Below, piece by piece: positions 22,877-46,701 of a stretch of DNA of 60,993 nucleotides (its first letter is position 1; every line of letters begins with the position of its first letter). A model generated the notes under the pieces. It did not search any database and had not been told where the DNA came from. It saw only the letters and a program-made list of their open reading frames with translations. This DNA is from Candidatus Omnitrophota bacterium (lineage in GTDB: Bacteria; Omnitrophota; Gorgyraeia; B26-G9). The position numbers and the translations under genes were made by a program. The stretch spans positions 1 to 60,993 of the forward strand of contig JACQZH010000012.1 in NCBI GenBank assembly GCA_016213925.1. Reading direction: 5' to 3'.

Positions 22877-23953
22877 ATGTCTTTGACGCTGATTGAATTG
22901 CTTAAAGAAATGACGGAACGCAATGCTTCGGACTTGCACATTCATACAGATTCGCCTCCACAACTAAGAATTAATTCCAGGCTTGTATCTATTGATGGCG
23001 CGGAAGTACTTTTCGCAGGGCAAACTAAAGAGCTGGTTTACTCTAACTTGACAGAGGGAGAAAAAAATAAATTTGAAGAAAAGAAGGAATTGGATAAGGC
23101 TTTTAGCATTGGAGGAGTAGCCCGGTTTCGCATGAATGTGTTTTATCATCGTAACGCAGTTTGCGCGGCGATACGGGCGCTTCCGATAACTATCCCTGAT
23201 TTTAAGTCTCTTGGACTGCCGGAGGAACAATTAAATTCAATCTGCCGTATGAAGAGGGGATTAGTTTTGGTTACCGGAGCAACGGGAGTAGGAAAAACAA
23301 CTACATTGGCTTCAATAATTGACAGGATTAATATAGAACGCAGTTGCCATATAGTTACTATTGAAGATCCTGTGGAAATAGTGCATAAGAACAAGAAAAG
23401 TATTGTCACTCAAAGAGAAGTTGGTATAGATACCTGCTCTTTTGGAGATGCCTTGAAATTTGTTTTGAGGCAGGATCCTGATGTAATTCTTATCGGAGAG
23501 ATGCGTGACTTAGAAACAATCAGCGCGGCTTTGAATATCGCGGAAACAGGGCATTTAGTATTTGCTACTTTGCATACTACAGATTGCGTGCAGACAATTA
23601 ATCGGATTATTGATGTTTTCCCTGCGTCCGCGCAATCTCAAGTGCGTACGCAGCTTTCATATGTTTTGGTTGCTACTATTTCCCAGAATTTGATTCCCCG
23701 CGCGGATAATACAGGGAGATGTTTAGCTGTGGAAACTATGGTAACTAATTTGGCAATTAGAGCAATGATGAGAGAAGAAAAGATCCATCAGATTTTTTCT
23801 TTGATCCAAACAGGGCAAAAAGACGGCATGAAAACGATGAATCATGCGCTTTATGAATTATATAAGCAGGGAGCGATTTCTTATCAAGAAGCAGCAGCGC
23901 ATGTTACGGACCATGAAGATTTTATGCGCTGCTTTAAAGGTACACAAAAATAA
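22877..23953 (+). CDS. pilT: Type IV pilus retraction ATPase PilT (paralogue 1)
   Basis: 358 aa. ASDLHI.., Walker A GATGVGKTT, Asp box/Walker B LRQDPDVILIGEMRD, His box GHLVFATLHT, and a C-terminal AIRAMMRE PilT-type motif. Confidence 0.85.
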   Translation: MSLTLIELLKEMTERNASDLHIHTDSPPQLRINSRLVSIDGAEVLFAGQTKELVYSNLTEGEKNKFEEKKELDKAFSIGGVARFRMNVFYHRNAVCAAIRALPITIPDFKSLGLPEEQLNSICRMKRGLVLVTGATGVGKTTTLASIIDRINIERSCHIVTIEDPVEIVHKNKKSIVTQREVGIDTCSFGDALKFVLRQDPDVILIGEMRDLETISAALNIAETGHLVFATLHTTDCVQTINRIIDVFPASAQSQVRTQLSYVLVATISQNLIPRADNTGRCLAVETMVTNLAIRAMMREEKIHQIFSLIQTGQKDGMKTMNHALYELYKQGAISYQEAAAHVTDHEDFMRCFKGTQK

Positions 23954-23971
23954 TTTATTGCGGAGATAGTT

Positions 23972-24379
23972 ATGAGTGAAAAAATTAAAGTATTACTGAT
24001 TGATGATGATGCAGATTTTATCAATATGATGCAATTATGGCTTTCAGGCAAAGGGTTTAGCGTTGATGTGCTTTATAACGGGGAGGAAGTTGTTGATAAA
24101 GTAAAAAATAACGGTTATCAAATTATGTTTCTTGATCTGAATTTACCTGGCCAGAACGGCCTTGAGATTCTTAGTGAGATAAGAATATTCAGTAAAATTC
24201 CAGTGATTATTTTCAGCGCGTTTGGTACAAAAGACAGAATTAAACAGGCTACAGAATTAGGGATATCAGGTTTTTTTGCTAAAGAAAAAGGTTTTGATGA
24301 AGCAGCGCGGATGATTTATACGGCTTTGAGAATCCATAAGGGGTTGTCCAGGTTATCAGAAGAAGAAGGGAGATCTTAA
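23972..24379 (+). CDS. Single-domain CheY-like response regulator
   Basis: 135 aa. LLIDDD acidic pocket, phospho-acceptor context MFLDLNLPG, no output domain. Sits between the two pilT genes. Confidence 0.8.
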   Translation: MSEKIKVLLIDDDADFINMMQLWLSGKGFSVDVLYNGEEVVDKVKNNGYQIMFLDLNLPGQNGLEILSEIRIFSKIPVIIFSAFGTKDRIKQATELGISGFFAKEKGFDEAARMIYTALRIHKGLSRLSEEEGRS

Positions 24380-24380
24380 T

Positions 24381-25445
24381 ATGACAGCGGAAATAGCAAA
24401 ATTATTACACATATTGATCGAGCGGAATGCTTCTGATCTGCATTTAGGAGCGGGGTCTCCTGCTTATCTGCGTATTGATGAGAAGATTATCCCTGTAAAT
24501 GATAAAATTTTATCTTCTGCTGACGTTCAGGAATTAATTTTTAGTATTTTATCTCCGGAAGACGTAAAACGTTTTAAGTCGGAAAAAGAACTTGACATGT
24601 CTTTTGAAATTGACGGGTTGAGCCGGTTTCGCGTTAATGTTTTTTTTCAAAGGGGGCATGTGGGGGCGGCTTTACGCGTGATACCTTTTAAAATTCTTTC
24701 TTTTGCTGAATGCGGCTTGCCGGTTAAAATCGTTACGGATCTTTCCACTAAACCTAAAGGGCTGGTACTGGTAACCGGAGCTACGGGGTCCGGCAAATCA
24801 ACAACGCTTGCTTCTATCATCGACCATATAAATGAGGAAAGGCCGTGCCATATTATTACCGTTGAGGATCCGATTGAATTTGTGCATAAAAATAAGCAGG
24901 CAGTTATTGACCAAAGAGAAGTTGGACAGGATACGAAAAGTTTTGCCGCGGCTTTAAAGCATGTTTTGCGTCAGGACCCGGATGTTATTCTAGTCGGAGA
25001 AATGCGGGATTTGGAAACTATCGAGGCGGCATTAACAATAGCGGAAACCGGCCATTTGGTTTTCGCGACACTGCATACTTCTGATGCTGTGCAGACTATA
25101 AACAGAATCATAGATGTTTTTCCTTCTCATCAGCAGCAGCAAGTGCGTACGCAGTTATCATTTGTATTGCAGGGGATACTTTCTCAGCAATTGATACCAA
25201 AAGTTGGCGGCACAGGACGTGTATTAGCGTGTGAAGTTATGCTGGGAACTCCTGCGGTTAAGAGTATGGTAAGAGAGCAAAAAGTTCATCAGATCTATTC
25301 TATAATTCAAACCTCTCAAAAAGAGGGGATGCGGACGATGAATCAATCTATCTATAACTTATATTCGGAAAAAATAGTCAGTTACGAAAGTGCTATTGCC
25401 CGCTCGACTGATCCGGAAGATTTGATAAGGTTGTTTAAGAGGTAA
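24381..25445 (+). CDS. pilT: Type IV pilus retraction ATPase PilT (paralogue 2)
   Basis: 354 aa. Walker A GATGSGKST, LRQDPDVILVGEMRD and GHLVFATLHT. Confidence 0.9.
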   Translation: MTAEIAKLLHILIERNASDLHLGAGSPAYLRIDEKIIPVNDKILSSADVQELIFSILSPEDVKRFKSEKELDMSFEIDGLSRFRVNVFFQRGHVGAALRVIPFKILSFAECGLPVKIVTDLSTKPKGLVLVTGATGSGKSTTLASIIDHINEERPCHIITVEDPIEFVHKNKQAVIDQREVGQDTKSFAAALKHVLRQDPDVILVGEMRDLETIEAALTIAETGHLVFATLHTSDAVQTINRIIDVFPSHQQQQVRTQLSFVLQGILSQQLIPKVGGTGRVLACEVMLGTPAVKSMVREQKVHQIYSIIQTSQKEGMRTMNQSIYNLYSEKIVSYESAIARSTDPEDLIRLFKR

Positions 25446-25450
25446 ATGAA

Positions 25451-26065
25451 ATGGCTTTAAAAAAAACAAAAACTAAGCAGTTAGGGCTTATTTTAGTCGA
25501 AAAAAAGTTATTAACCCAGGAACAGGTTGATAAAGCGCTGGAAATTCAGCTAAAGGAAGGCGGGTTGCTTGGGCAAATACTGGTTAAACTCGGATTTGTT
25601 ACTCAAGAGCAGATAGACAATTGTATAAATGAGCAAACGGTTGATACTCCGAAATTAGAAAACGTGCTTAGGGAAATGGGGATAATTTCCGAAGCTGATT
25701 TTGCTAAAATTATCGTAAAACAAAAAAACGAAGGCGGCTCTTTTGCGAAAGCAATTACAAGCATAGGAATACTCAGCGAAGAAGATTTGGTAAGCACCCT
25801 GGTGACGCAATTTGGGTTCCCATATCTGCCTTTGTCGAATTATGATATCGATGCGGAAATAGTTAAGTTTGTCCCTAAAAAAACCGCTCAGGAATTTTGC
25901 CTCATTCCAGTAGATAAAATAGGTAATATTCTTACCTTAGCTATGGTGGATCCGCTTAATGCCGAAGCAAAAGACGGCATTAGAAAAATCACCGGCTTGA
26001 ATGTGGAAGCTTTTATTTCTACTTTTTCCGATATAACTAATGCGATAAGTAAATATTACGTTTAA
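25451..26065 (+). CDS. Stand-alone MshEN x2 / T2SSE_N (GspE N-terminal) domain protein without an ATPase domain
   Basis: QLGLILVEKKLLTQEQVDKALEIQ-LKEGG-LLGQILVKLGFVTQEQIDNCINEQ, then a second module KLENVLREMGIISEADFAKIIVKQ-KNEGG-SFAKAITSIGILSEEDLVSTLVTQ. These merge into a T2SSE_N core (..PVDKIGNILTLAMVDPLN..). Confidence 0.7.
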   Translation: MALKKTKTKQLGLILVEKKLLTQEQVDKALEIQLKEGGLLGQILVKLGFVTQEQIDNCINEQTVDTPKLENVLREMGIISEADFAKIIVKQKNEGGSFAKAITSIGILSEEDLVSTLVTQFGFPYLPLSNYDIDAEIVKFVPKKTAQEFCLIPVDKIGNILTLAMVDPLNAEAKDGIRKITGLNVEAFISTFSDITNAISKYYV

Positions 26066-26087: not shown

Positions 26088-27803
26088 GTGATGGTTCAAA
26101 GTATAAAAGAAAAAATTCTTGAAGTTTTAACAAGGTCAAACTTTTTAACTAAAGAGCAGTTGGATGAAGCTGTCGCAGCGCAGAAAAAAACAGGCAGGCA
26201 ATTGAGTGAAGTGCTGACAACAATGGGCTATATGAGTCAAAAGGATCTTGTAATTGTTCTTAGTCAAAGCCTGAATATCCCTCCTATCAATCTTAAAAAA
26301 GTTAAAATTGATTCTAGTGTTATCGGAATTATTCCGCGGGAGATGGCGGAGAAGTATCAGGCTATAGCAGTTTCGAAAATAGGAAAAATTGTGACGGTTG
26401 CGATGGTGGATCCATTGAACGTGCTTGCGATTGATGAACTGAAAGTTTTGACTAATTATGAAATTAAAATTGTTATCGCAATGCCTGAAGAATTAAAAGC
26501 AGCAATAAATACCTTTTACAGCGAATCAGCTAATGAACAGATAAAAGGGTTTATAGACAATGTTAAAGAAATGGATTTGGAACTGATTGAGGAAAAAATA
26601 GATGCCGAAGTTACGGTTAACACGCAAAAGCTGCTTCGCGATATTGAGGATGCTCCTGTAGTTAAAGTTACGAATATGATATTGACTGAGGCAATAAAAC
26701 ATAAGGCAAGCGATGTGCTTATCGAACCTCAAGAGAAGGGATTGCGCTTGCGGTACCGTTTGGATGGAATTTTGCATGAATTTCCCGGGCCGCCAAAATC
26801 AATGCATGAGGCAATAGTTTCCCGAATTAAAGTTATGGCTGTATTGAATATTGCTGAACACCGTTTGCCTCAAGACGGACGTTTTAAGATAAAAGTTAAT
26901 GAACGCGAAGTTGATTTTCGTGTTTCAATAATGCCTTCAAGTCACGGGGAAAAAGTGGCGCTGCGGGTACTAGATAAGTCAGTAGTAGTTTTAGACATTG
27001 ACCGGATGGGGTTTGAAGCTGATCCGCTGAAAAAAATAAAAGAGTTGGCAATGGAGCCGCATGGGATGATGCTTATTTGCGGGCCTACCGGCAGCGGGAA
27101 GTCGACTACCTTGTATAGTATTTTGAAATATATTGACGATCCGGAGAAGAACCTATGTTCAGCAGAAGACCCTGTCGAATATCAGTTAGAAGGCATTAAT
27201 CAAGTGAACGTTAATCCTGATGTCGGGCTTACTTTTGCTGCTGCTTTGCGTTCTTTTTTACGGCAGGACCCTGATGTGATTATGGTCGGGGAAATTCGCG
27301 ATGTGGAAACTTTGGATATCGGAATAAAAGCTGCGCTTACCGGGCATTTGGTATTAAGTACGCTACATACAACCGAGGCAGCTGGAGCGATAACAAGAAT
27401 GGTTAATATGGGGATCGAACCTTTTTTGATAACCTCTTCGTGTATTTTAGTATGCGCGCAGCGGTTAATCCGCCGGATATGCGAAAAGTGTAAAATATCT
27501 TATCCGATCTCTGAACAAACTAGGGATAAATTTAAAATTCCGGATAAATTCACTGAATTATATAAAGGCAAAGGATGCGAAAAATGCGATAATACCGGAT
27601 ATGCTGGCAGGGTCGGCCTTTGCGAGGTTTTAGTTTTAACTCCGGATATCAGGGACTTGATTATGGCAAAAGCCCAAGAGAATGTTATTAAGGCTAAGGC
27701 TCGCGAGGAAGGTATGGCAACGTTACGGGAAAATGGAGTAACAAAAGCTTTAAAAGGTATTACAACTTTAGAAGAAGTTACCAGATTAACGATTTCTGAC
27801 TAA
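26088..27803 (+). CDS. pilB: Type IV pilus extension ATPase PilB/GspE family (paralogue 1)
   Basis: MshEN-like N-terminus, T2SSE_N, Walker A GPTGSGKST, LRQDPDVIMVGEIRD, GHLVLSTLHT, and a tetracysteine motif CEKC...CEKC. GTG 26088 or ATG 26091. Confidence 0.9.
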   Translation: MMVQSIKEKILEVLTRSNFLTKEQLDEAVAAQKKTGRQLSEVLTTMGYMSQKDLVIVLSQSLNIPPINLKKVKIDSSVIGIIPREMAEKYQAIAVSKIGKIVTVAMVDPLNVLAIDELKVLTNYEIKIVIAMPEELKAAINTFYSESANEQIKGFIDNVKEMDLELIEEKIDAEVTVNTQKLLRDIEDAPVVKVTNMILTEAIKHKASDVLIEPQEKGLRLRYRLDGILHEFPGPPKSMHEAIVSRIKVMAVLNIAEHRLPQDGRFKIKVNEREVDFRVSIMPSSHGEKVALRVLDKSVVVLDIDRMGFEADPLKKIKELAMEPHGMMLICGPTGSGKSTTLYSILKYIDDPEKNLCSAEDPVEYQLEGINQVNVNPDVGLTFAAALRSFLRQDPDVIMVGEIRDVETLDIGIKAALTGHLVLSTLHTTEAAGAITRMVNMGIEPFLITSSCILVCAQRLIRRICEKCKISYPISEQTRDKFKIPDKFTELYKGKGCEKCDNTGYAGRVGLCEVLVLTPDIRDLIMAKAQENVIKAKAREEGMATLRENGVTKALKGITTLEEVTRLTISD

Positions 27804-27948
27804 AAGAGGTTCAGCCAGTCCTGTAGAGTTCTGGGCGGGCATGATTGAGCCGTTTGGTCGGAAAAAGAGAAAGATGCTACGGTTTTATCATAAGAAATTC
27901 CTTTGAAATTTTCAGGGATAAGGTTTCGCAATCTGGTCAGTGGGGGCT

Positions 27949-29667
27949 ATGCGTACTACAAAAAAACGTTTAAACGAACTGTTACTTGATTATAATTTAC
28001 TAAGCGAAAAGGATGTTATCCGGGCTTTAGAAATACAGCGTAAGCGCGGCGGACAGCTTGCTAGTATTTTAGTTGAAGAAGGTTTTGTCAAGGAAGATGA
28101 TATTGTAAGCTGTTTTTGCCGTTTTTTGGAGATTCCTGCATTACGGCTTTCAAAATTTAAAGCGGCTGAGCAAATTATTAAAATAATTCCTGAACATGTA
28201 GCAAGGCATTACAGGTTAATTTGTATTTCTCAGATAGCGAACATGCTGACGGTGGCAATGAATGACCCGCTGAATGTATTGGCAATTGATGATATCAGGG
28301 CATTGACGGGATATGACGTTATCCCTGTGGTTTGTCCTTTAAGTGAGATTACTCTGGCCGTGGATAGGTTTTACCATCATAAAGAAGAGGTAAAGACGCA
28401 GGAATCTTTCGATGAATTGGTTAAGGAAATCAACGAAGAAGATGTTGAAGTTATCAAGACTCAGGAACAGATTGATATCGGTGATGTAATACGTTCCAGT
28501 TCTGAGGCTCCGATTGTGAAAATGATTGATGCATTGATTGCAGAGTCTTTGATTAAGCGCGCTTCTGATATTCACATTGAGCCTTATGAAAAAGATATCA
28601 GAGTGCGTTACCGCATTGACGGCGCTTTAACAGAAGCGGTTAGGTTGCCGAAAAGAGTTCAGAATGCCGTTGCCGCCCGCTTAAAGATTATGTCAAATAT
28701 GGATATTACTCAGCGGCTTATTCCGCAGGATGGAAGATTTAGAGTTAAGCTGCAGGAGAAAGAGGTTGATTTTCGTGTTTCCGTGTTACCGCTTATTTTC
28801 GGAGAAAAAGTTGTTATGAGAGCTTTGGATAAGGCTAATCTAAGCATCGGGCTTGAGGCATTAGGATTTCTGCCGCAGGCAATGGATGCATTCCAGCATG
28901 CGGTTACAAGGCCCTATGGGATGATCCTGGTTACCGGGCCTACGGGTAGCGGTAAATCCACTACATTATATTCTGTTTTAAATAAACTAAATGTTCCGGA
29001 AAAAAATATAATAACTATTGAAGACCCTGTCGAATATCAGGTAGAAGGAATTACCCAGGTGCAGGTAAAACCGGATATCGGGCTTACTTTTTCTCAAGGC
29101 CTAAGATCGGTTCTAAGGCAAAATCCCGATATCTTGATGGTTGGCGAAATTAGAGATTTTGAAACTGGCGATATTGCTATAAAAGCCGCTTTAACAGGAG
29201 CGCTATTGCTTAGTACTCTGCATACAAATGACGCGCCTGGGGCAGTGACCCGTCTGATGGATATGGGTGTTGAGCCGTTTTTGATAGCAAGCAGTGTTGT
29301 CGCGGTAGCTGCGCAGCGTTTAGCCAGAAAGATTTGCTCACATTGCAAGGAAGCTTATAAAATCCCACAGTCTGTTTTGGATAGGCTTGATTTAAATATT
29401 GAAGCGCAAAAAGTAACTGTTTATAAAGGTAAAGGGTGCGAGAAATGCGGGGGCAGCGGATACCGCGGCCGTTTCGCGATTCTAGAGATAATGCTTGTTA
29501 ATGATAATGTGCGGGAGATGATTATGAACCGCAGTTCCAGTGATGAAATAAAACGTTATGCCCGTAAAGAGATGAAGATGCTAACATTAAGAGATACAGG
29601 CGTGCTAAAGTTTCTCTCCGGAGATACTACGCTCGAAGAGGTTTTGCGTGTTACATCAAAAGAATAA
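27949..29667 (+). CDS. pilB: Type IV pilus extension ATPase PilB/GspE family (paralogue 2)
   Basis: N-terminal RLNELLLDYNLLSEKDVIRALEIQ-RKRGG-QLASILVEEGFV.. (MshEN motif with the Arg retained). Walker A GPTGSGKST and CSHC...CEKC. ATG 27949; an in-frame GTG lies at 27940. Confidence 0.9.
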   Translation: MRTTKKRLNELLLDYNLLSEKDVIRALEIQRKRGGQLASILVEEGFVKEDDIVSCFCRFLEIPALRLSKFKAAEQIIKIIPEHVARHYRLICISQIANMLTVAMNDPLNVLAIDDIRALTGYDVIPVVCPLSEITLAVDRFYHHKEEVKTQESFDELVKEINEEDVEVIKTQEQIDIGDVIRSSSEAPIVKMIDALIAESLIKRASDIHIEPYEKDIRVRYRIDGALTEAVRLPKRVQNAVAARLKIMSNMDITQRLIPQDGRFRVKLQEKEVDFRVSVLPLIFGEKVVMRALDKANLSIGLEALGFLPQAMDAFQHAVTRPYGMILVTGPTGSGKSTTLYSVLNKLNVPEKNIITIEDPVEYQVEGITQVQVKPDIGLTFSQGLRSVLRQNPDILMVGEIRDFETGDIAIKAALTGALLLSTLHTNDAPGAVTRLMDMGVEPFLIASSVVAVAAQRLARKICSHCKEAYKIPQSVLDRLDLNIEAQKVTVYKGKGCEKCGGSGYRGRFAILEIMLVNDNVREMIMNRSSSDEIKRYARKEMKMLTLRDTGVLKFLSGDTTLEEVLRVTSKE

Positions 29668-29786: not shown

Positions 29787-30989
29787 ATGGCTTTATTTAA
29801 ATATGTTGCTAAGGATGAAGAAGGTAATGCGGTTAATGATGTCATTGAAGCTAAAGACGAAATAGTTGCTTTAGATATGCTTCGGGTAAAAAACCTGATT
29901 ATTATTTCTATCAATGAGGTAAAACAGCAAAAGGGTGCGGTGTCCTCTAGTAAAAAAATAAAATCGGACGAACTGGTAATTTTTTCCCGTCAGTTGGCGA
30001 CAATGGTTAATGCCGGTATACCGCTTGTTCAGAGCCTGGATATCTTGAGCGAGCAGATGGAAAGCATGGTCTTTCGCCAAATGATTACTGCTGTCAGGCA
30101 GGATGTTGAGGCCGGCGCCAGCTTATCAGCAGCCCTGGAGAAGCATCCAAAGGTTTTTGGAGTGCTTTATACAAATATGGTTAAAGCCGGAGAAACAAGC
30201 GGTATGCTTGATGATATTCTAGACCGTTTGGCCGGATATTTGGAAAAAAGCAATCAATTGCAGCGTAAGGTTAAGTCGGCAATGGTGTATCCTGCTGTTG
30301 TTACAGTTATGGCTTTTGGAATAACGCTTGTGCTTTTACTTAAAGTTATTCCTACCTTTAAAGAGATCTTTGCTACTTTGGGTGGAACTTTACCTATGCC
30401 TACACAAATATTGATTTCTATATCTGACGGATTACGCCACTATTTTATGTTTGCGGTTATTGTTGTTGGTATTTTTTGTTTTTTAATGATGAAATTAGTT
30501 CAGACTCCAAAGGGAAGGCAGCAATTTGACCAGCTAAAGCTAAATGTGCCGGTATTTGGGCCATTGATAAAAAAAGTTGCTGTGGCTAGGTTTTCAAGGA
30601 CACTGTCAACATTAATCCGCAGTGGAGTGCCAATACTTGGAGCTTTAGAAATTGTTGGTAAGACTTCCGGGAATGTAATTATTGAAATGGCAGTAGATAA
30701 GGCCAGAGTTGGAATACGCGAAGGTGAAAGCATTGCCCAGCCTTTATCAAAAAGCAATGCTTTCCCTCCGATGGTAACTAGAATGATATCTGTGGGTGAA
30801 GAATCAGGAGAGCTGGAGAAGATGCTTACAAAGATTGCTGATTTTTACGAAGATCAGGTTGATGCGGCAGTAAGCGGTTTAACTAGCTTGATAGAACCGC
30901 TTATTATTGCGTTTTTAGGTATTGTAGTAGGCTCTATAGTAATAGCTATGTTTCTGCCGATATTTAAGATAACTGAACTTATCGGTTAA
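29787..30989 (+). CDS. pilC: Type IV pilus platform protein PilC (GspF family)
   Basis: 400 aa with two GspF repeats and three TM regions. RBS AAGGAGG. Confidence 0.9.
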   Translation: MALFKYVAKDEEGNAVNDVIEAKDEIVALDMLRVKNLIIISINEVKQQKGAVSSSKKIKSDELVIFSRQLATMVNAGIPLVQSLDILSEQMESMVFRQMITAVRQDVEAGASLSAALEKHPKVFGVLYTNMVKAGETSGMLDDILDRLAGYLEKSNQLQRKVKSAMVYPAVVTVMAFGITLVLLLKVIPTFKEIFATLGGTLPMPTQILISISDGLRHYFMFAVIVVGIFCFLMMKLVQTPKGRQQFDQLKLNVPVFGPLIKKVAVARFSRTLSTLIRSGVPILGALEIVGKTSGNVIIEMAVDKARVGIREGESIAQPLSKSNAFPPMVTRMISVGEESGELEKMLTKIADFYEDQVDAAVSGLTSLIEPLIIAFLGIVVGSIVIAMFLPIFKITELIG

Positions 30990-39236: not shown

Positions 39237-39275
39237 AAAGTGGCGAAACAGTTATATGTTTCGCCACTTTTATGT
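39237..39275 (+). terminator. Rho-independent terminator after pilA-1
   Basis: 13-bp stem AAAGTGGCGAAAC / GTTTCGCCACTTT with an 8-nt loop and a T-rich tail. Confidence 0.8.
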
Positions 39276-39305: not shown

Positions 39306-39773
39306 ATGGATAGAAATGGGTTTTCCATGATTGAGGTTCTTGTTGCGATAGCGATTATGGGAGTACTTTTTGCAATAGCTATTCCTAATCTGGTGTGTGC
39401 CAGGATAAGCGCCTATGAGACAGTTGCCTTGACATCAATGAAAACAATCTCAAAGGCAGTGCAAAGTTGGTCTGTGCAAAAGGGAAGTTTTAAAGGAGTT
39501 AGTTTAGACAGCTTGGCGAATTCTAATCCGCCGTTTATTGATAGTTCATTAAAAACCGGGTATAAGTCCGGATATAATTTTGAGATTACGCTTGGAGTCC
39601 CGATTGCCAACGGCAGGATTTACAAGTATAATATTAATGCTTTTCCGAATAGGTACCGAAGCTCAGGAGAAAGGTCATGCCTTATTGATGAAAACGGAAA
39701 TGTTTACGCGAAGGATAATGACGGAATAAAGCTGGCAGAAGCGGATAAAATTCCGCAAAATATTTTAAACTGA
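39306..39773 (+). CDS. Type IV pilin (paralogue 2, more divergent)
   Basis: MDRNG|FSMIEVLVAIAIMGVLFAIAIPNL and C-terminal SGERSCLIDENG. Confidence 0.85.
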   Translation: MDRNGFSMIEVLVAIAIMGVLFAIAIPNLVCARISAYETVALTSMKTISKAVQSWSVQKGSFKGVSLDSLANSNPPFIDSSLKTGYKSGYNFEITLGVPIANGRIYKYNINAFPNRYRSSGERSCLIDENGNVYAKDNDGIKLAEADKIPQNILN

Positions 39774-39837: not shown

Positions 39838-40299
39838 ATGAAGAAAGGCGGATTTACTCTTGTTGAGATAATGGTTGTTGTAGCGATTATTGCGATTCTG
39901 TCAGTGATATCAATCCCTAATTTATTGCGTTCAAGGCTTACGGCAAATGAATCTGCCGCAGAATCAAATCTTAAGACAATTGCTTTAGCCTGTGAAAGTT
40001 TCCGCTCGGTTCAGCCTACACCTGCTTACCCTGCGGTTGCCGGGGATTTGACTGGCGCTACACCGGCATATGTAAACGCGGTGATTTTTGATGCAGCAGG
40101 CAGGCAGGGATATGTTTTTACTTATACTCAGATTTCAAATAGCGAATTTGTGGCTTGCGGGACGCCTGTTTCTTATCAGGCAACAGGAGAAAGGACGTTT
40201 GCTGTTGATGAATCAGGAGTGTTAAGGTTTCAGGATTTTGGAGCAAGTCAGAATGTTACGACAAAAATTGTTTACAACGCAATGACTGTTGTAGATTGA
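39838..40299 (+). CDS. Type IV pilin (paralogue 3)
   Basis: MKKGG|FTLVEIMVVVAIIAILSVISIPNLLRSRL, C-terminal TGERTFAVDESG, RBS GAGAGGAG. Confidence 0.9.
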   Translation: MKKGGFTLVEIMVVVAIIAILSVISIPNLLRSRLTANESAAESNLKTIALACESFRSVQPTPAYPAVAGDLTGATPAYVNAVIFDAAGRQGYVFTYTQISNSEFVACGTPVSYQATGERTFAVDESGVLRFQDFGASQNVTTKIVYNAMTVVD

Positions 40300-40335: not shown

Positions 40336-40434
40336 GTGAGAAAAGTAAAAGGCATAAATTTTATAGAACTAATGATTTGTATAGGAATGATTGCTTTCCT
40401 TGGTTCAATTTTTAAAATGGAAAACTTGATTTAA
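40336..40434 (+). pseudogene. Pilin N-terminal stub (32 codons: leader plus hydrophobic helix only)
   Basis: The GTG-initiated ORF encodes VRKVKG|INFIELMICIGMIAFLGSIFKMENLI*, with Gly at -1 and Glu at +5 as in prepilins but no globular domain. Confidence 0.5.
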
Positions 40435-40484
40435 ATGATGTTCAGTGCTAATTATAAGCTGTAGTTGATGTTAAAATATTTTTA

Positions 40485-40514
40485 TTGACAAATAACAGCA
40501 GTAAGTGTTATTAT
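40485..40514 (+). promoter_or_regulatory. Strong sigma-70-type promoter candidate with an extended -10
   Basis: TTGACA, 18-nt spacer, TGtTATTAT. It coincides with the alternative start of the 131-aa ORF in the supplied track. Confidence 0.55.
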
Positions 40515-40574
40515 TTATTTAATAAAATACATCTGTTTAAAAGGATAGTAAGTTTTGAAAAAGGAATTTCAAAA

Positions 40575-40880
40575 ATGACAAGGAAGTATATATTTGCCGA
40601 AGCAGGAGATTTTATTAATTTTCATACCATTCACAGAGCTAACCTGTATAATCAAAATTCTGAAAAATTCACTGTTTGCCGAAGTAAAATATGCTATATT
40701 GAAAAACGACTGGGTAAATCCATGAGTATGCTAGTCTCCTGGGAAGGGACTGCGCATTTTAGAAAAGGTTTACATTCGCGGCTGCAAAACTATAGCCTGA
40801 AAACTGTTGACAGAGTGTTGCCGCTTGAGTTTTTGCTGCCTGTACAGCAGCCAGGCGATTTAAGAAACCGCGGGCTTTAA
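40575..40880 (+). CDS. Orphan 101-aa ORF of unknown function (may instead be part of a long structured leader of the GGDEF gene)
   Basis: ATG with a weak RBS (AAAGGA). No recognisable family. The 3' half is relatively GC-rich and contains several hairpins. Confidence 0.3.
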   Translation: MTRKYIFAEAGDFINFHTIHRANLYNQNSEKFTVCRSKICYIEKRLGKSMSMLVSWEGTAHFRKGLHSRLQNYSLKTVDRVLPLEFLLPVQQPGDLRNRGL

Positions 40881-40903: not shown

Positions 40904-42187
40904 ATGACTAAGTTGGCGTTTTTTTTAACCATAATCGGTGTTTTGTTCCTAATTCTTTATTGGATAGTAACGCCTGTTATGGGTGCGGCTTTAACAGTGG
41001 TTTCTCTTCCGTTTAGTTTAGTCAGCGGAATTTTGATTTATCAAAAACATAAGCTAAAGAAAGAGTATGATGATATGGTGACGGCTTTTCAGATTGAGAA
41101 AGAGGATATCATAAAAGAGATACAAAAAAAAGAAAAACGGCGACAGGAGCAGTCAGATATAATTCGGGGATTTAGTAAAGAGCTTTCTGTGGTTTTTAAT
41201 AAAGAGCAGCTTTTAAGGATTATTGTGCAGCAGTTTTCTCAAATTACGCAGTCTTCTTCGGGAGAAAGTCAATGTTTTCTTTTGGTAAATGATCCGGGAA
41301 CTGAAGAATTTACTTACGAGATTGGTTATAACTTGGATAGGAATAGTTTGCGTGCAATGAATTTTTCCGCAAAAGATGATGTTATCCAAACAGTGGTAAA
41401 ATCAAAAAAAATATCAACTTATGTTAGTGATATTTTCGGCGGAGATTCAAATATACGTTATTTCTGGAAAGAAGACAGGCTGACGTATCTTTCTCAATTG
41501 GGTTCCTTGGCTTTGATTCCGCTTGTTCTTGAGGATAATGTTTGGGGAATTATAGTTATATTTTGCGGCGAGGATGCTGCGGCGCGGATAAAAAATGAAG
41601 AAGGATTCATTCTTTTGCTTGTGGCTCAGGCGGCAATTGCTTTGGGCAGTGCTATTCATCGCGGTTTGGCTTCAGTTGACCGTCTTACTCAATTATATAA
41701 TAGGACGTTTTTACAAAAAAGAATGCTTGAAGAGATAGAATTTTGCAACCGCCAGTTATTGCCGTTAAGCTTGATGATGATTGATATAGATTTTTTTAAA
41801 GAAGTAAATGATACTTACGGCCATCAAGAAGGGGATATGGTTCTCAAAAAGATAAGCCAGATTATTACTAATAATGTGCGGCTAACAGATATTTGCGCTC
41901 GTTATGGCGGAGAAGAGTTTGTCGTAGTTTTACCCGGTATCGCTGAGATCGCCGGTGATAAATTCTCTATTGCGGAAAGGCTGCGTAAATCTGTTGAAAG
42001 CGCTGATTTTTTCGTTGGAGTAAATAAACGCATAAGAGTTACGGTAAGCGTTGGAGTTTCAGTACGGCGGGCTCCAGATGATCAGGATTTAAATATGGAG
42101 AATTTGATCAAAAAAGCGGATGAACTGCTCTATAAAGCGAAAAAAGAGGGCAGAAACAGAGTTTGTTATTCGCCGGCAGAGGCTTAA
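40904..42187 (+). CDS. Membrane-anchored GAF-like/GGDEF diguanylate cyclase
   Basis: Two N-terminal TM segments, a central sensory (GAF-like) region, active-site GGEEF, and an RxxD I-site (RLTD) five residues upstream. Confidence 0.85.
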   Translation: MTKLAFFLTIIGVLFLILYWIVTPVMGAALTVVSLPFSLVSGILIYQKHKLKKEYDDMVTAFQIEKEDIIKEIQKKEKRRQEQSDIIRGFSKELSVVFNKEQLLRIIVQQFSQITQSSSGESQCFLLVNDPGTEEFTYEIGYNLDRNSLRAMNFSAKDDVIQTVVKSKKISTYVSDIFGGDSNIRYFWKEDRLTYLSQLGSLALIPLVLEDNVWGIIVIFCGEDAAARIKNEEGFILLLVAQAAIALGSAIHRGLASVDRLTQLYNRTFLQKRMLEEIEFCNRQLLPLSLMMIDIDFFKEVNDTYGHQEGDMVLKKISQIITNNVRLTDICARYGGEEFVVVLPGIAEIAGDKFSIAERLRKSVESADFFVGVNKRIRVTVSVGVSVRRAPDDQDLNMENLIKKADELLYKAKKEGRNRVCYSPAEA

Positions 42188-42219
42188 GAAAGTCAATCGG
42201 GCAAAAAAGAAGGTATCTA

Positions 42220-43914
42220 ATGTTTAAAAACTATAGGGAATCTATAGGCTTGGAAATAGGCGACGGATTAGTAAAAGCAATGCAGATCCGTTCTACAGAC
42301 AAGGAAAACAAACTTCTTGGATTCGAAATAGTAGAAGTTAATTTTCGTGATGGCCGTCAGGGTATTGTCAATGCGATAAAAGCTGTTCTGGAAAAACTTG
42401 GCGTTAATAGGAAAAAGCAGGAGATTAATATTTCAGTTTCCGGCGAATCTGTTATGGTCAGGGATATTCATTGGCCGCAAATGAGCGATGACGAAATCAG
42501 GAAAGCGCTTAAGTTTGAGGTTGAGCGCCAAGTGCATTATAAGATTGATGAGATTGTTTTTGATTATTATTCTGTGTTGGATAAAACTATAGCAGAAACA
42601 AAAACCCGGGTGATATTAGTTGCCGCTAAAAAGGATTTGATAGAAAATTATGCCGGCCTGATTGAAGCCGCAGGTTATCAATGCGGTTTTGTTGAAGTAG
42701 ATACTTTCAGCCTTTTGAATTGTTTTTATGTTAATGGGCCGCAGGTTTCTCCAGGAAAGGCGGTTGCGATTATAAATGTCGGGATGGAAGTGACGAATAT
42801 CGATATCATAAAAGGCAGAATTGTCGGATTAACAAAGGATGCTTTTGTTGCTTGGAGTAACTTGATTGACGCTTTGCCTGAAAATTTCGAGCTTGATTTT
42901 ACAAATATTAATGCGCTTAAAGGAATCATGGGCTCGGATGATATTTATGAATTGAGTCTATTTATTATCAACGCACTTTCTAATCAAATTCGAAGGACTA
43001 TCGAATTTTATGAAAGCCAGGGCAGAGATACCGTTGATGAGATTTTTTTGAGCGGCAAAGTAGTAATGTATAAAAATCTTGATAAGCACTTGCAGAACAT
43101 TCTTGGGTTGAAGGTGACGCGTTGGAATCCTATAAACAGCATCGACTGTAGCGCGCATAATTTAGATAAAGAGAAAATCCAAAAAAATTCGGAAATGATG
43201 GCGTTATGCGCAGGCCTGGCTTGCCACCGATCGTTCGAGATTAATCTTTTGGCTGCGAAAAAAGAAAAAAAACAAAACAAGCTTGTTGCTTTTTTGATCG
43301 AATATAAAGGCTTGTTATTAACGTTTCTGATATGTTTGAGTGTTTTTATCAGCTTATGGATAGTGCTTATTACACAGGTAAAAACAAAGGAAAAAAATAT
43401 TAAAATTCTTTTGAGGGAAAATGAAAAGCTCGCGTCTGTTATTGCTGAAATAGAAGAGATGAAAATGGGAAAGATGAAACTTAAAGAGCAAGAGCAAATT
43501 GCCCGTATTTTGCTTTCGCGGCGGATATATTGGAGCCGCAAATTTTACGATTTAAGTAAATGCCTTCCTGAAAAGATTTGGCTGACGGAGGTATATATTA
43601 AAGGAGCGGAACGTGTTTCCCATAAAGATCTTTTTGATTTCGAGATAAATCGGGGGTTGGGGAAAATAGCTGATTTGTCGAGTCCCACTATCAGTCAGGA
43701 AAAAATTCCGGAAATAAGTTTCGTGATTAAAGGAATCGCTTATTCCGCGCAGGAGGAAACAATGCTTTCGGACATAAATTCTTTCATATATGCTTTAAAA
43801 GAAAATAAAAATTTTATACAGGACTTTAAAAGAATCGAATTGAAAAGGTCGTTTCGCCAGCTTATTAAAGATACTGCGACGATGAGGTTTGAGATTGAGT
43901 GTTTTATAAAATAA
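42220..43914 (+). CDS. pilM: PilM-PilN fusion protein (actin-like ATPase fold, TM segment, PilN-like coiled coil)
   Basis: N-terminal IGLEIGDGLVKAMQI PilM-type start and actin-fold region of about 350 aa, then TM LLTFLICLSVFISLWIVLI and a coiled-coil/periplasmic part. ATG 42220 with RBS AAGAAGG. Confidence 0.8.
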   Translation: MFKNYRESIGLEIGDGLVKAMQIRSTDKENKLLGFEIVEVNFRDGRQGIVNAIKAVLEKLGVNRKKQEINISVSGESVMVRDIHWPQMSDDEIRKALKFEVERQVHYKIDEIVFDYYSVLDKTIAETKTRVILVAAKKDLIENYAGLIEAAGYQCGFVEVDTFSLLNCFYVNGPQVSPGKAVAIINVGMEVTNIDIIKGRIVGLTKDAFVAWSNLIDALPENFELDFTNINALKGIMGSDDIYELSLFIINALSNQIRRTIEFYESQGRDTVDEIFLSGKVVMYKNLDKHLQNILGLKVTRWNPINSIDCSAHNLDKEKIQKNSEMMALCAGLACHRSFEINLLAAKKEKKQNKLVAFLIEYKGLLLTFLICLSVFISLWIVLITQVKTKEKNIKILLRENEKLASVIAEIEEMKMGKMKLKEQEQIARILLSRRIYWSRKFYDLSKCLPEKIWLTEVYIKGAERVSHKDLFDFEINRGLGKIADLSSPTISQEKIPEISFVIKGIAYSAQEETMLSDINSFIYALKENKNFIQDFKRIELKRSFRQLIKDTATMRFEIECFIK

Positions 43915-43924: not shown

Positions 43925-44518
43925 ATGAAAAGGAATTTAAGCAAAAAAGAACAGGTTATGATTTCTGGTATAATATTGATTTTTTTGCTAATGGTTATGG
44001 CTTATAGTTTTATTTTTCAGCCTTTGATTAAAACGCTTATTGAGGATTCAAAAAAAGAAAATATTATGATAGAGCAAATGAAAAATGCCGAGAATATGGT
44101 TGCTGATAAAGAACGTTTGACAAAAGAAGTGGAAGAGGTCAAAAATAAAATCAAGTTTTATGAGCAGCGCCTGCCGTCAAAAGTCGATATTCCCCAGGTT
44201 TTAAGCGAATTGATAGATATAGGCAAGAAAACCAATGTAATATTTGATTCAATAGAACCATTGAATCCGGAAAAAATAACGATTAGTGAAATTGAGGGAA
44301 AGAATTATTTGGAAATACCTATTGAAATAAGGCTAAAAGGCGGATATCATGAGTTCGCTAAATTTGTTAATGAAATTGAAAATTTCAGACGATTCATGAA
44401 GGTTGATCAAATTAAGATCAGTTTAAATCAGGCTTCCAAAACAAAGCATGATATTAGTCTGGTAGTTAGCGCTTTTGGAGTTGAAGAAATTTCAAAAAAA
44501 GGTAAAGGGGCAAACTAA
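43925..44518 (+). CDS. pilO: Type IV pilus alignment protein PilO
   Basis: 197 aa with an N-terminal TM, coiled coil and PilO-like C-terminal domain (LPSKVDIPQVLSELIDIG ... GGYHEFAKFVNEIENF). Confidence 0.75.
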   Translation: MKRNLSKKEQVMISGIILIFLLMVMAYSFIFQPLIKTLIEDSKKENIMIEQMKNAENMVADKERLTKEVEEVKNKIKFYEQRLPSKVDIPQVLSELIDIGKKTNVIFDSIEPLNPEKITISEIEGKNYLEIPIEIRLKGGYHEFAKFVNEIENFRRFMKVDQIKISLNQASKTKHDISLVVSAFGVEEISKKGKGAN

Positions 44519-44519
44519 A

Positions 44520-44939
44520 ATGAAGTTCAGGCGCGGAATTTTGATTGCAGTTTTAATCGTATTAATACAGATTTGCTCAGTTTTAGCGCAAAATAGTTTA
44601 GATGAGGAAGAATCAATCAGTTTTGAAGGGTTTGTTTATGAATCAGAAGCGAACCGGGATCCTTTCTTTTCTCTGCTTGATAATTCTGGAGTGTTTATGG
44701 ATGAACAAGGACCGAAAAAAGAAGAAATATTGATGGAGCGTGTGCAAAAAGTGAGTGTAAATGGCGTTATCTGGGACCAGGATATGCCGTTAGTTATGAT
44801 CAATAAAAAGATTTACAAAAAAGGGGATATGATTCAGGAAGGGTTGCTGGTAAAGGAGATTAGAGCGGAAAGCGTAACGCTAGGTTATGAAGATCTTACG
44901 CATGTAATTTCCCTTGTAAAAAGGAAAAATCTAGATTAG
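44520..44939 (+). CDS. pilP: PilP-like periplasmic pilus assembly protein
   Basis: Signal peptide MKFRRGILIAVLIVLIQICSVLA, a C-terminal beta-domain (VNGVIWDQDMPLVMINKKIYKKGDMI..LVKEIRAESVTL), and position between pilO and pilQ. Confidence 0.55.
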   Translation: MKFRRGILIAVLIVLIQICSVLAQNSLDEEESISFEGFVYESEANRDPFFSLLDNSGVFMDEQGPKKEEILMERVQKVSVNGVIWDQDMPLVMINKKIYKKGDMIQEGLLVKEIRAESVTLGYEDLTHVISLVKRKNLD

Positions 44940-44952
44940 CAAGGAGGAATAG

Positions 44953-46701
44953 ATGAAAAAAATCGAAAGGTTCTCAAGGAAGAGGGTAATATTAGTGTTG
45001 CTCTTGCCCGTTTTAATAATTAACTTTTGCATTAGCGGATATGTCGGTTTTGCTTTTGCTGAGGATGATTCTCAAACGGAGTTAAATGCTTGCGGTTTAG
45101 AAAAAAATATTGAAAGTGGCGGAGATGAAAAGCTAGTAACGATAAATTTTACTGAAACTGATATGCGGGAAGTGCTCAACATATTGGCATACAAAGGAGG
45201 AGTAAATATCGTTGCCGGGGATGATGTTATTACTATGGTATCTGTCCAGTTGAAAGATGTCCCTTGGGAACAGGCATTAGACGTAATTTTAAAGACTTAT
45301 AATTATACCTATAAAAAAGACGGGAATTTGATTCGGGTTATGAGCCTGGCGAGGGCGCTCGAAGAGGAAGGAAAGATTCCTTTAGTAACGAAAATTGTTC
45401 CGCTTAATTTTGCTAATGTAAAAGAGCTTAAGTCGTCTTTAGAAAAAGTATTGAGTAAGCGCGGGACCTTAGAAATTGATGAACGCACTAATTCGTTAGT
45501 TATTACGGATATCCCGGAAACAGTTAATGACATTGAGAGGGCAGCGCTGGAACTTGATAGCAGGACGCCGCAAGTACTTATTGAAGCAATGATGGTAGAT
45601 GTTAAAATTACCGATAAGGATCAATGGGGTACAATGCTAACAGTTTTAGATCTTAAGTCAAATAACAATGCAAGTAATCTCGTAACAAACATGCCAGGAG
45701 ATCAAACGAATACATTTTCTTTTGGGGCAGTTACAGATGCCCTTGATATTACATCGGTGCTTGACGTATGGATAGCACAGCAGAAAGCAACTATTTTAGC
45801 GAATCCTAAGGTTTTGACTCTTGATAATGAAGCGGCTAAAATCGCTATTACCGAAGAGATTCCCTATCTTGAAACAGTTGATTCGGGCTCAGGCACTACG
45901 ACAAATGTAAAATTTAAAGAAGCAGGGATTAAGCTTTCTGTTACGCCGCATATAACAAGCGGCCAGTTTATTTCAATGAATGTTAAGCCGGAACAAAGTT
46001 TTAAATCAGGGGAATTGCTTGGCCAGCCATTAATTGATAAACGCGAGGCTGAAACAAACCTATTAGTCAAAGACGGGCAAACAATTGTAATAGGCGGGCT
46101 GCGCCAGTTTAAGGATAACGCTACATACGAGAAGGTTCCTATTTTAGGAGATGTCCCGTTTTTTGGATTATTTTTCAGAAAAAGAGTAATTGAACAAATA
46201 GAAACTGAATTAATATTGTTTGTTACGCCCCATATTATTAGAGAGTCATTGTTAAGCGATAGAGAATTGGAATTTCTTGAGATGCTTGATAATACTGAAA
46301 AAGTTGAGATTGATGAGCGCACAGAAATGCAGCGTTTAAAAGATGGCACGGATATGCTGGTTGAAAAATTAAAAGCTTTAAAAATAGAAAAAAGAGAAGT
46401 CGATAAACGAAGGAAAAATAGTGAGCAAACTTCAGGGAGAGCAGAAAGGCAGTCTTTAAAGCGGAAACGCATAGAAGAAGATGTAAAACCTGTTAAGAAG
46501 GTGCAAGCTGAGAAAAAAAGAGAGAGGAGGGGGCAGAGGCAGATAACAGAAAAGCCAGTTGACCCTGCGGTTATTGAAGAAAAAAAAGTTGTTGCTGAGG
46601 AAAAGGCAGAAGATGAGTTTTATTTTGAAGGAACAGCATTAGATTATGAAGCTGCGCAACTTAAAGCTTCTTTGGAAAAGCTGAAACAATTGGAAAATTA
46701 A
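44953..46701 (+). CDS. pilQ: Type IV pilus secretin PilQ with a highly charged C-terminal extension
   Basis: Signal peptide, N0/N1 domains (INFTETDMREVLNILAY..), and secretin core (LANPKVLTLDNEAAKI.., VPILGDVPFFGLFFR, LILFVTPHII). Followed by about 135 aa of K/R/E-rich tail. Confidence 0.9.
   Translation: MKKIERFSRKRVILVLLLPVLIINFCISGYVGFAFAEDDSQTELNACGLEKNIESGGDEKLVTINFTETDMREVLNILAYKGGVNIVAGDDVITMVSVQLKDVPWEQALDVILKTYNYTYKKDGNLIRVMSLARALEEEGKIPLVTKIVPLNFANVKELKSSLEKVLSKRGTLEIDERTNSLVITDIPETVNDIERAALELDSRTPQVLIEAMMVDVKITDKDQWGTMLTVLDLKSNNNASNLVTNMPGDQTNTFSFGAVTDALDITSVLDVWIAQQKATILANPKVLTLDNEAAKIAITEEIPYLETVDSGSGTTTNVKFKEAGIKLSVTPHITSGQFISMNVKPEQSFKSGELLGQPLIDKREAETNLLVKDGQTIVIGGLRQFKDNATYEKVPILGDVPFFGLFFRKRVIEQIETELILFVTPHIIRESLLSDRELEFLEMLDNTEKVEIDERTEMQRLKDGTDMLVEKLKALKIEKREVDKRRKNSEQTSGRAERQSLKRKRIEEDVKPVKKVQAEKKRERRGQRQITEKPVDPAVIEEKKVVAEEKAEDEFYFEGTALDYEAAQLKASLEKLKQLEN

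Follow-up and report, generated by a model that had tools for sequence, protein, structure and literature searches.

The type IV pilus locus

The stretch of DNA analysed here, which we call the window, comprises positions 1-60,993 of contig JACQZH010000012.1 (assembly GCA_016213925.1) from a Candidatus Omnitrophota bacterium. Positions 22877-46701 hold a block of type IVa pilus (T4aP) genes, among which lie a GGDEF gene, a riboswitch of the cyclic di-GMP-I (c-di-GMP-I) class and a gene for a stand-alone MshEN protein. We consider it probable that this is the T4aP locus of an Omnitrophota clade that gathered a cyclase, a riboswitch and a separate MshEN receptor for c-di-GMP in among its pilus genes. 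Gene families were assigned with Pfam and NCBIfam, and RNA families with Rfam. The features of the block are as follows, with the strand after the coordinates.

22731-22759, +, sigma-70-like promoter candidate TTGACT-17-TATATT upstream of pilT1 (consensus scan, pattern match only)
22877-23953, +, pilT1, retraction-ATPase paralogue of the PilT/PilU family (TIGR01420, 439 bits; Pfam T2SSE)
23972-24379, +, single-domain CheY-like receiver (PF00072, E = 5.8e-23; no further domain)
24381-25445, +, pilT2, conserved PilT paralogue (TIGR01420, 489 bits)
25451-26065, +, stand-alone MshEN protein, 204 amino acids (aa) (NF053729, 74.9 bits; PF05157 at residues 121-203)
26088-27803, +, pilB1, extension-ATPase paralogue (T2SSE and PF05157; TIGR02538, 632.9 bits, cut-off 675.65)
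27940-29667, +, pilB2, second extension-ATPase paralogue (T2SSE and PF05157; TIGR02538, 637.2 bits, cut-off 675.65)
29787-30989, +, pilC, platform protein (two T2SSF domains; NCBIfam PilC models at ~435 bits, under their 700-bit cut-offs)
31039-31067, +, sigma-70-like promoter TTGACA-17-TATACT ahead of the riboswitch leader (11/12 consensus positions)
31112-31197, +, c-di-GMP-I riboswitch aptamer (Rfam RF03167, 71.8 bits, E = 4.7e-15)
31213-31258, +, expression platform with intrinsic terminator (folding, terminator scan, comparison with relatives)
31284-31871, +, minor pilin 1, true start probably internal (N_methyl)
31890-32534, +, minor pilin 2 (N_methyl)
32558-35629, +, large minor-pilin-operon protein (600-aa and 266-aa open reading frames, ORFs), then a small membrane protein of 134 aa (no Pfam family)
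35689-36984, +, PilS-like histidine kinase (6TM_PilS, HisKA, HATPase)
36990-38342, +, PilR-like sigma-54 activator (Pfam)
38666-38681, +, sigma-54 -24/-12 element TGGCAT-N5-TTGCT upstream of pilA1 (motif and conservation)
38741-39220, +, pilA1 (N_methyl)
39236-39271, +, strong terminator after pilA1 (terminator scan)
39306-39773, +, pilA2 (N_methyl)
39838-40299, +, pilA3 (N_methyl)
40904-42187, +, membrane-anchored GGDEF protein with GAF-like region, 427 aa (GGDEF E = 3.3e-45; weak GAF match)
42163-43914, +, pilM-pilN fusion (Pfam, NCBIfam)
43925-44518, +, pilO (Pfam, NCBIfam)
44475-44939, +, pilP-like gene (Pfam, NCBIfam)
44953-46701, +, pilQ secretin (Pfam, NCBIfam)

PilB, PilT, PilC, PilM/N/O/P, the PilQ secretin and pilins with class III leaders were all present, which identifies the machinery as T4aP. 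An earlier annotation that a model had made from the letters alone, the sequence-only reading, had listed these genes, and every one of them was confirmed where it had been placed. The same annotation had reported that the window has no prepilin peptidase gene (pilD). In agreement with this, no PilD was found in the 61 kb when the translations of ORFs of at least 150 aa were read and all membrane proteins of the flanks were searched with Pfam. A Pfam search within the pilus block revealed no gene for an EAL or HD-GYP phosphodiesterase.

The single block had been presented as a departure from the scattered pilus loci of well-studied bacteria. This contrast does not hold, since other bacteria are known to keep their T4aP genes in a single locus, and the use of "scattered genes" to recognize T4aP has been called obsolete (PMC6916266). 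The block is co-directional, as had been claimed, but so is the whole 61-kb window (G+C ~39%, GC skew positive throughout), in which the forward strand carries nearly every plausible gene. Clustering and co-directionality are in themselves unremarkable.

Conservation of the locus in relatives

Related loci were found with PilC as the probe, one genome per species, and all window proteins were then mapped onto them. PilC was 84% identical to proteins of Candidatus Omnitrophota metagenome-assembled genomes, and the 26 best related loci obtained with this probe were labelled Omnitrophota almost without exception. At least 10 contigs from Omnitrophota relatives kept the gene order of the block. 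The order HK-rSAM-pilT1-REC-pilT2-mshEN-pilB1-pilB2-pilC-mp1-mp2-big-x-pilS-pilR-pilA(n)-GGDEF (HK, histidine kinase; rSAM, radical-SAM gene; REC, receiver; mp, minor pilin) is shared by the window, L002, L006, L010 and L011 up to the end of each locus, and L004, L007 and L008 have the same order minus pilT1. L161-L164, which were fetched via orthologues of the GGDEF protein, carry pilC-mp1-mp2-big-x-pilS-pilR-pilA-GGDEF-pilMN-pilO-pilP-pilQ-(rimP)-nusA-infB. PilT2 showed 76-81% identity in close relatives, and the copy number of pilA varied from one to three.

As judged from gene order, the block is inherited as a unit within this Omnitrophota clade. The sequence-only reading had proposed a comparison of synteny in which a lack of conservation would imply chance juxtaposition, and this was not borne out. 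Because the order is conserved in related genomes, the c-di-GMP parts were not placed beside the pilus genes by chance.

More distant Omnitrophota carry a shorter cluster, rSAM-GGDEF*-(pilT)-mshEN-pilB1-pilB2-pilC-pilA-pilM-N-O-P-Q, in which the asterisk marks a degenerate active site. Elusimicrobia and Sumerlaeota loci have a single pilB, pilT, an occasional receiver gene, pilC and pilMNOQ, and are without a stand-alone MshEN gene. One locus binned as "Methanosarcinales archaeon" (L045, contig JAIWAR010000006.1) bears a bacterial mshEN-pilB1-pilB2-pilC-pilA-pilQ cluster at ~51% identity; its archaeal label most likely arose through misbinning, and several Omnitrophota-like loci labelled "Planctomycetia" resemble this case.

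The GGDEF protein as a predicted diguanylate cyclase

The GGDEF protein consists of two hydrophobic N-terminal helices, the region with the weak GAF match and a GGDEF domain. An alignment with PleD revealed that the metal-binding Asp (DID), the guanine-reading residues N335 and D344 (VND...EGD) and KxxGRN are all retained, and an I-site, RLTD, lies five residues ahead of GGEEF (RLTD-ICARY-GGEEF). These residues predict that the protein is a diguanylate cyclase whose I-site is of the RxxD type. The intact motifs and the position between pilA and pilM agree with the earlier annotation, and the gene occupies the same slot in 4/4 fetched orthologue contexts (L161-L164), down to 51% identity. Its orthologues form 34 clusters (P0002-P0035) at 51-69% identity, nearly all of them full length, and the named ones all belong to Omnitrophota. 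All catalytic and I-site motif residues are invariant in the 33 full-length orthologue clusters, and the N-terminally truncated P0026 retains the motifs as well. A metagenome scan with the protein returned generic GGDEF domains only (~40% identity) and no orthologous loci. The last 25 bases of the GGDEF ORF are shared with the start of pilMN.

A GGDEF enzyme beside a GEMM-type riboswitch could also signal through 3',3'-cyclic GMP-AMP (cGAMP), as in the Geobacter pathway of Hypr GGDEF enzymes and GEMM-Ib riboswitches. In Hypr enzymes, which synthesize cGAMP, Ser replaces the Asp that contacts the Watson-Crick face (Ser348 in GacA) and is accompanied by GGDEF, while Ser combined with GGEEF is inactive (PMC6456294). 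The window protein has Asp (EGD) together with GGEEF; it is therefore assigned as a diguanylate cyclase and not a Hypr enzyme (PMC6456294).

The pilus clusters of distant Omnitrophota (L013, L015-L019, L023-L026, L041, L053) contain a transmembrane-HAMP-GAF-GGDEF gene upstream of mshEN. Its GGDEF motif is degenerate (GRLGDDRF, ARLGEREF, GRIGPKIL) and the Asn/Asp pair is missing. We considered these genes as conserved cyclases and rejected them on account of their degenerate active sites; the domain is probably non-catalytic and perhaps of the receptor type. Two of these loci have a gene for a receiver joined to an HD_5 (HD-GYP-like) domain between pilB2 and pilC (L023, 8800-9858; L025, 8884-9939), a candidate c-di-GMP phosphodiesterase in the pilus cluster of another Omnitrophota lineage.

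The riboswitch and its expression platform

The sole Rfam match in the whole window is the aptamer of the c-di-GMP-I clan at 31112-31197 on the forward strand, so that the GEMM-I riboswitch announced before the minor pilins by the sequence-only reading is present. It lies after pilC and before the minor-pilin operon in 13/13 close relatives. Rfam searches of seven close relatives gave a clan match after pilC in each; with further matches before pilA in L017 and L019, this makes nine loci beyond the window. The TTGACA...TATACT promoter pair recurs in all relatives whose leaders were compared. L002, L004, L005, L006, L008 and L010 carry an extra 42-81 bases (one or two additional hairpins) after the first hairpin, ahead of the GCAAAG segment, and RF01051 scores fall to 38-50 bits in close relatives with these extra bases.

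The best Rfam model for the aptamer is the GGC variant RF03167, while the relatives match RF01051 directly. We presume that "GGC" stands for the bases at positions 20, 47 and 92. In the window the equivalents of the binding triad are 31121 for G20, 31148 for A47 and 31192 for C92; for A47, both the role and the mapping are what we take them to be. The variant-defining base was taken from the Rfam consensus lines, and assignment to the c-di-GMP-I-GGC variant was rejected, as the window reads GCAAAG like the RF01051 consensus (GCAAAg) and unlike that of RF03167 (GCGAAg). In c-di-GMP-I riboswitches, G20 reads one guanine of the ligand and C92 pairs with the other (PMC6140456). The G at 31121 and the C at 31192 therefore make this a canonical c-di-GMP binding site, and from these bases we infer that c-di-GMP is the ligand.

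The same position bears on cGAMP. An A at position 20 confers selectivity for cGAMP, and the change A20G converts it to c-di-GMP (PMC6140456, PMC6456294). The GEMM-I relatives before Geobacter pilus assembly genes are cGAMP switches (PMC6456294), and here the best Rfam model is a variant rather than RF01051; both points would fit a cGAMP pathway. The G at 31121, where GEMM-Ib has A, argues against it, as do the Asp at the Hypr position and the GGEEF motif of the cyclase. On these grounds we rejected cGAMP signalling, which we regard as very improbable.

The platform downstream of the aptamer contains an intrinsic terminator, in which 31217-31227 pairs with 31239-31249 and is followed by a T run (31250-31258). 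The 3' half of the aptamer (31179-31199, copy 1) is nearly duplicated over 21 nucleotides at 31213-31233 (copy 2), which forms the 5' arm of the terminator. This duplicated-arm platform is kept in 13/13 close relatives (L001-L008, L010, L011, L161 and L163 among the loci listed). The copies differ in that copy 1 has CCGGG, matching the 5' strand of P2, and copy 2 has CCGAG, matching the 3' arm of the terminator. In L161, compensatory swaps, read by eye, occur in P2 and in the terminator stem together with their partner bases, which supports both helices. Copy 2 uniquely retains the consensus AU of "AuGac" (AU before GA(U/C)) in all close relatives.

The sole mutually exclusive pairing seen is that of copy 2, either with the 5' strands of the aptamer or with the 3' arm of the terminator. 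Were the ligand to hold the 5' strands against copy 1, the terminator would form and the switch would be OFF. If the ligand-competent fold uses copy 2, the switch would be ON. Minimum-free-energy folding of the leader cannot decide between the two, because it always showed the terminator and never reproduced the aptamer.

Two other designs for this leader were considered and rejected. A leader peptide, MIAELPN, begins at a conserved AUG (31211), but L002 and L010 have not kept its stop codon. The sequence resembling its Shine-Dalgarno element is the 3' strand of P1 and covaries in L163. A classical antiterminator, formed by the aptamer 3' strand and the terminator 5' arm, does not apply in this clade as the two segments are direct repeats and not complements. 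Read by eye, the distant L017 and L019 switches seem to follow the classical design. We know of no other instance of a duplicated-arm expression platform.

The stand-alone MshEN protein

The MshEN motif, RLGxxhhxxGhhxxxxLxxxLxxQ, occurs in two copies with a spacer of five residues (PMC5013675). The backbone amides of Gly3 and of the next residue contact guanine, and even the relaxed search motif demands Gly3 (PMC5013675, PMC11731258). The 204-aa protein has two tandem MshEN_N-like modules, the first near-canonical (residues 10-62) and the second degenerate (68-120), followed by one MshEN_C (T2SSE_N). In the first module, motif 1 (residues 10-33, QLGLILVEKKLLTQEQVDKALEIQ) satisfies 9/11 and motif 2 (residues 39-62, LLGQILVKLGFVTQEQIDNCINEQ) 10/11 relaxed key positions, with a spacer of five; the failures are at position 1 (Q and L) and position 10 (K). 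The motif pair of the second module (68-91, 97-120) is degenerate at Gly3. The double-MshEN architecture of the earlier annotation is thus supported, with one good module out of two.

NCBIfam model NF053729 covers the 53 positions of the c-di-GMP motif and has a cut-off of 38 bits. The window protein scored 74.9 bits, close to its homologue in L015 (70.9 bits) and to the single PilB of two Elusimicrobia loci, L046 and L073 (68.9 and 68.6 bits). PilB1 and PilB2 of the window reached 42.7 and 40.4 bits. In the model searches proposed as a check by the sequence-only reading, the stand-alone protein thus stands well above the MshEN cut-off, and the PilBs clear it only marginally.

An AlphaFold2 model (pLDDT 81.7) displays two four-helix modules and an alpha/beta subdomain. 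Its top Foldseek matches were MshE with c-di-GMP (5HTL; E = 7e-9, TM-score to target 0.68) and the GSPII-A and GSPII-B domains of PilF. The family comprises ~42 clusters of ~204 aa and ~70 of ~150 aa, almost all of which carry the name "hypothetical protein". Alignment of 36 members showed no variation at G12 and G41, which are Gly3 of motifs 1 and 2, and next to none at Q33. The second motif begins with LLG, as in GSPII-B of PilF; the Thermus domain binds c-di-GMP at 6 nM (PMC11731258). By motif and by predicted fold, the stand-alone protein is the best candidate for a protein receptor of c-di-GMP at this locus.

The two PilB paralogues

PilB1 has intact Walker and tetracysteine motifs. The N-terminal motif pairs of both paralogues are degenerate: that of PilB1 (KILEVL... 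/ QLSEVL...) fails positions 3, 7 and 10 in motif 1 and positions 1, 3 and 7 in motif 2, and that of PilB2 reads RLNELL... / QLASIL.... Gly3 is replaced in 4/4 PilB motifs (by L, S, N and A), and each motif has two or three failures against the relaxed motif. NF053729 recognizes the MshEN pairs claimed for both PilB N-termini only marginally; as sensors, with Gly3 missing from all four motifs, they are poor candidates.

For the PilB paralogues to be the receptors themselves, the stand-alone protein would be only an adaptor or a decoy N-domain. Their scores above the NF053729 cut-off (42.7 and 40.4 against 38), the preserved 24+5+24 spacing and the retention of most hydrophobic positions in both N-termini speak for this. 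Against it stands the loss of Gly3, the residue in contact with guanine (PMC5013675, PMC11731258), from all four motifs, as well as the behaviour of GSPII-A of Thermus PilF, which has one good and one degenerate motif and does not bind c-di-GMP (PMC11731258).

A census of the hG..Q..hG pair also argues against it. It covered 63 loci, 32 with and 31 without a stand-alone MshEN gene. Where the stand-alone gene is present it precedes pilB1-pilB2, with two full PilB genes in 30/32 loci, and the pair is kept by 0/61 PilBs and by 31/32 stand-alone proteins. Among the 31 loci without it, none of which has two PilB genes, 21/31 PilBs keep the pair. The simplest reading would be that the receptor function lies on a separate protein wherever PilB is duplicated. 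We consider it improbable that the PilB paralogues are the receptors here.

A proposed local c-di-GMP circuit

From the features above, a circuit can be proposed. The GGDEF enzyme, encoded just upstream of pilMN-O-P-Q and probably co-transcribed with it, would make c-di-GMP, with feedback through the I-site as a limit. The riboswitch, behind its own sigma-70-type promoter, would gate transcription of the minor-pilin operon (the priming complex) via the intrinsic terminator. The stand-alone MshEN protein would bind c-di-GMP with its first four-helix module and act in trans on PilB1, PilB2 or both, the N-terminal motifs of which are decayed. Independently, PilS/PilR would drive pilA1 from the sigma-54 promoter, and the PAS kinase encoded two genes ahead of the block might, speculatively, pass its signal to the orphan receiver beside PilT. 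Degradation of c-di-GMP and prepilin processing would have to be encoded elsewhere in the genome. The sequence-only reading had suggested a self-contained circuit, a description that fails because the block has neither an EAL/HD-GYP gene nor pilD.

In its strongest form the proposal is that the receptor module of PilB has split off as a stand-alone subunit, internally duplicated in this clade, that acts in trans on two signature-less PilBs. Together with a cyclase in the pilMNOPQ operon and a riboswitch on the minor-pilin operon that uses a copy of its aptamer 3' half as terminator arm, it would make up a locally wired module for one appendage. We put this form forward tentatively, as possible but short of an even chance.

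A simpler picture has the same elements as neighbours without a dedicated circuit: the GGDEF protein supplies the c-di-GMP pool of the whole cell, which the riboswitch and the MshEN protein read in the way of c-di-GMP effectors in many bacteria. The absence of EAL or HD-GYP genes from the block favours such a pool, and adjacency and shared orientation are cheap in a window that is one long co-directional gene run. Furthermore, the cluster GGDEF of the distant clade is degenerate, so c-di-GMP there must come from elsewhere. A global pool accounts less well for a GGDEF protein with an intact active site that holds the exact pilA-pilM slot down to 51% identity, and for the retention of three different types of c-di-GMP element in one locus across the clade. 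We consider it rather unlikely that the elements are such neighbours.

Several points weigh against the proposed circuit. Cyclase activity, c-di-GMP binding and the protein interactions are all predictions from sequence. Both good motifs of the stand-alone protein begin with Q or L rather than R, an invariant Lys being found one residue earlier, and the PilB N-termini, which barely clear NF053729, may bind weakly. The riboswitch sequence fits an ON as well as an OFF direction. Co-transcription of the GGDEF gene with pilMN is suggested by their spacing and overlap only, and with no phosphodiesterase in the block the cyclase may serve global signalling. Lastly, because the GGDEF active site of the distant clade is degenerate, enzymatic synthesis inside the cluster is a trait of this clade only.

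Even so, the link of the pilus locus to c-di-GMP looks real as supported by conservation, and the protein sensor is likely to be the stand-alone protein rather than the PilBs. Omnitrophota are uncultivated and mostly very small bacteria that are likely to use pili to attach, to move or to take up DNA. With a cyclase, an RNA sensor and a detached protein sensor set among pilus genes and conserved there, this locus would be a compact natural example of local c-di-GMP signalling. It would also allow a test of whether a receptor domain has passed from cis (fused to PilB) to trans, and would give a function to the stand-alone MshEN family (~110 clusters). The current understanding of pilus regulation is not overturned.

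Comparison with known systems

We take Myxococcus xanthus to have nearly all of its T4aP genes in one locus, including pilSR with a sigma-54-dependent pilA, pilB/T/C and pilMNOPQ. That locus includes pilD, absent from this window, and is not known to hold a stand-alone MshEN gene, riboswitch or cyclase, all three of which are present here. The MshEN-type N-terminus of M. xanthus PilB is reported to be linked to c-di-GMP (PMC6957770, PMC5544727). M. xanthus has one PilB with a canonical motif pair, in contrast to the two PilBs with degenerate pairs in the window.

MshE of Vibrio cholerae and PilF of Thermus thermophilus carry the same 24+5+24 motif pair on a four-helix bundle followed by T2SSE_N as the stand-alone protein, whose predicted fold matches 5HTL (MshE) and 8PDK; PilF also has tandem modules of unequal quality. 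In MshE and PilF, however, the receptor domain is fused to the ATPase, whereas here it is a separate 204-aa protein beside motif-decayed ATPases. In Xanthomonas citri, c-di-GMP reportedly reaches PilB via separate proteins, FimX and PilZ, that dock on the N-terminal domain of PilB (PMC8389850). Structures of the PilB N-terminus with PilZ were among the fold matches of the stand-alone protein. The X. citri receptor is the EAL domain of FimX with PilZ as adaptor, in another gene arrangement, and not an MshEN module.

Clostridioides difficile is reported to have a c-di-GMP-II riboswitch before pilA1 (PMC6366702, PMC6200980), and Geobacter has GEMM-Ib before pilus assembly genes (PMC6456294). Common to both and to this locus, where the gating is predicted, is a cyclic-dinucleotide riboswitch gating the transcription of type IV pilus genes. 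The present switch differs in its c-di-GMP-I class with canonical bases, in its target, the minor-pilin operon, and in the terminator 5' arm that is a near-copy of the aptamer 3' half.

Every part is thus of a known kind: single-locus T4aP clusters, riboswitch-controlled pili, and MshEN regulation of PilB, MshEN control of pilus ATPases being established (PMC5013675, PMC11731258). The sequence-only reading had been aware of no description of the arrangement. In the literature, where coverage was incomplete and absence is weak evidence, we found no description of a stand-alone MshEN family beside two motif-decayed PilBs, of a cyclase slot before pilMNOPQ, or of a duplicated-arm platform.

Other pilus genes and the flanks

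The pilin leaders follow G|F(T/S)xxE (MGRKG|FTLVE, MDRNG|FSMIE, MKKGG|FTLVE), and the minor pilin genes downstream of the riboswitch are conserved in relatives. The large protein of the minor-pilin operon has a PilX-like hydrophobic N-terminus. Its gene (32558-35211) is split here into the 600-aa and 266-aa ORFs and is a single gene of 912-965 aa in L161, L163 and L164. Against the large protein of the relatives, one reading frame of the window matches up to 34351 and a different one from 34342 on, immediately 3' of an A16 run (34301-34316). The split might reflect a frameshift, an error of assembly or phase variation. The PBP2 gene (mrdA, 16092-17721) consists of two overlapping ORFs (16092-16751 and 16708-17721). 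With the frame apparently broken twice in the window, sequencing error is a live explanation for both split genes.

The sigma-54 element before the first pilA is conserved in L004, L021, L161, L163 and L164, five relatives with pilSR. It is absent from L011 and from L015, L017 and L019, which are distant, lack pilSR and have a sigma-70-type promoter. PilMN is a fusion of 583 aa in the window, with the PilN motif "EINLL" after the PilM domain, and of 559-561 aa in L161-L164; in distant Omnitrophota the two are separate genes.

A 33-codon ORF with a GTG start at 40336-40437 encodes only a pilin-like leader and a hydrophobic helix (VRKVKG|INFIELMICIGMIAFLGSIF...). It had no homologue in the fetched loci and may be either a pilin remnant or a mini-pilin. 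The ORF at 40485-40880 was rejected as a gene since it has no family match and the spacer is not conserved in relatives.

The receiver protein retains its acidic pocket and phospho-acceptor Asp, and homologues adjoin pilT in Omnitrophota and Elusimicrobia loci. Its position between two pilT genes, pointed out by the earlier annotation, is found in the window and in some relatives only, since pilT1 is absent from L004, L007 and L008. Only one candidate partner kinase is encoded nearby, the conserved PAS kinase (18869-20896), and the partnership is speculative. No response regulator accompanies this PAS histidine kinase. In close relatives its gene and a radical-SAM gene of the B12 type (together 18869-22679) are conserved directly upstream of the block; the radical-SAM gene is kept in distant relatives too.

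The upstream flank consists of mreB, mreC, mreD, the PBP2 gene and rodA, then the PAS kinase and radical-SAM genes, and the downstream flank of rimP, nusA, infB, trpS and scpAB. Since housekeeping genes stand on both sides, the pilus block is a chromosomal locus. Farther upstream, 20 kb from the block, lies a gene for the DNA-uptake channel ComEC (1039-2463), which would fit a pilus that takes part in natural transformation.

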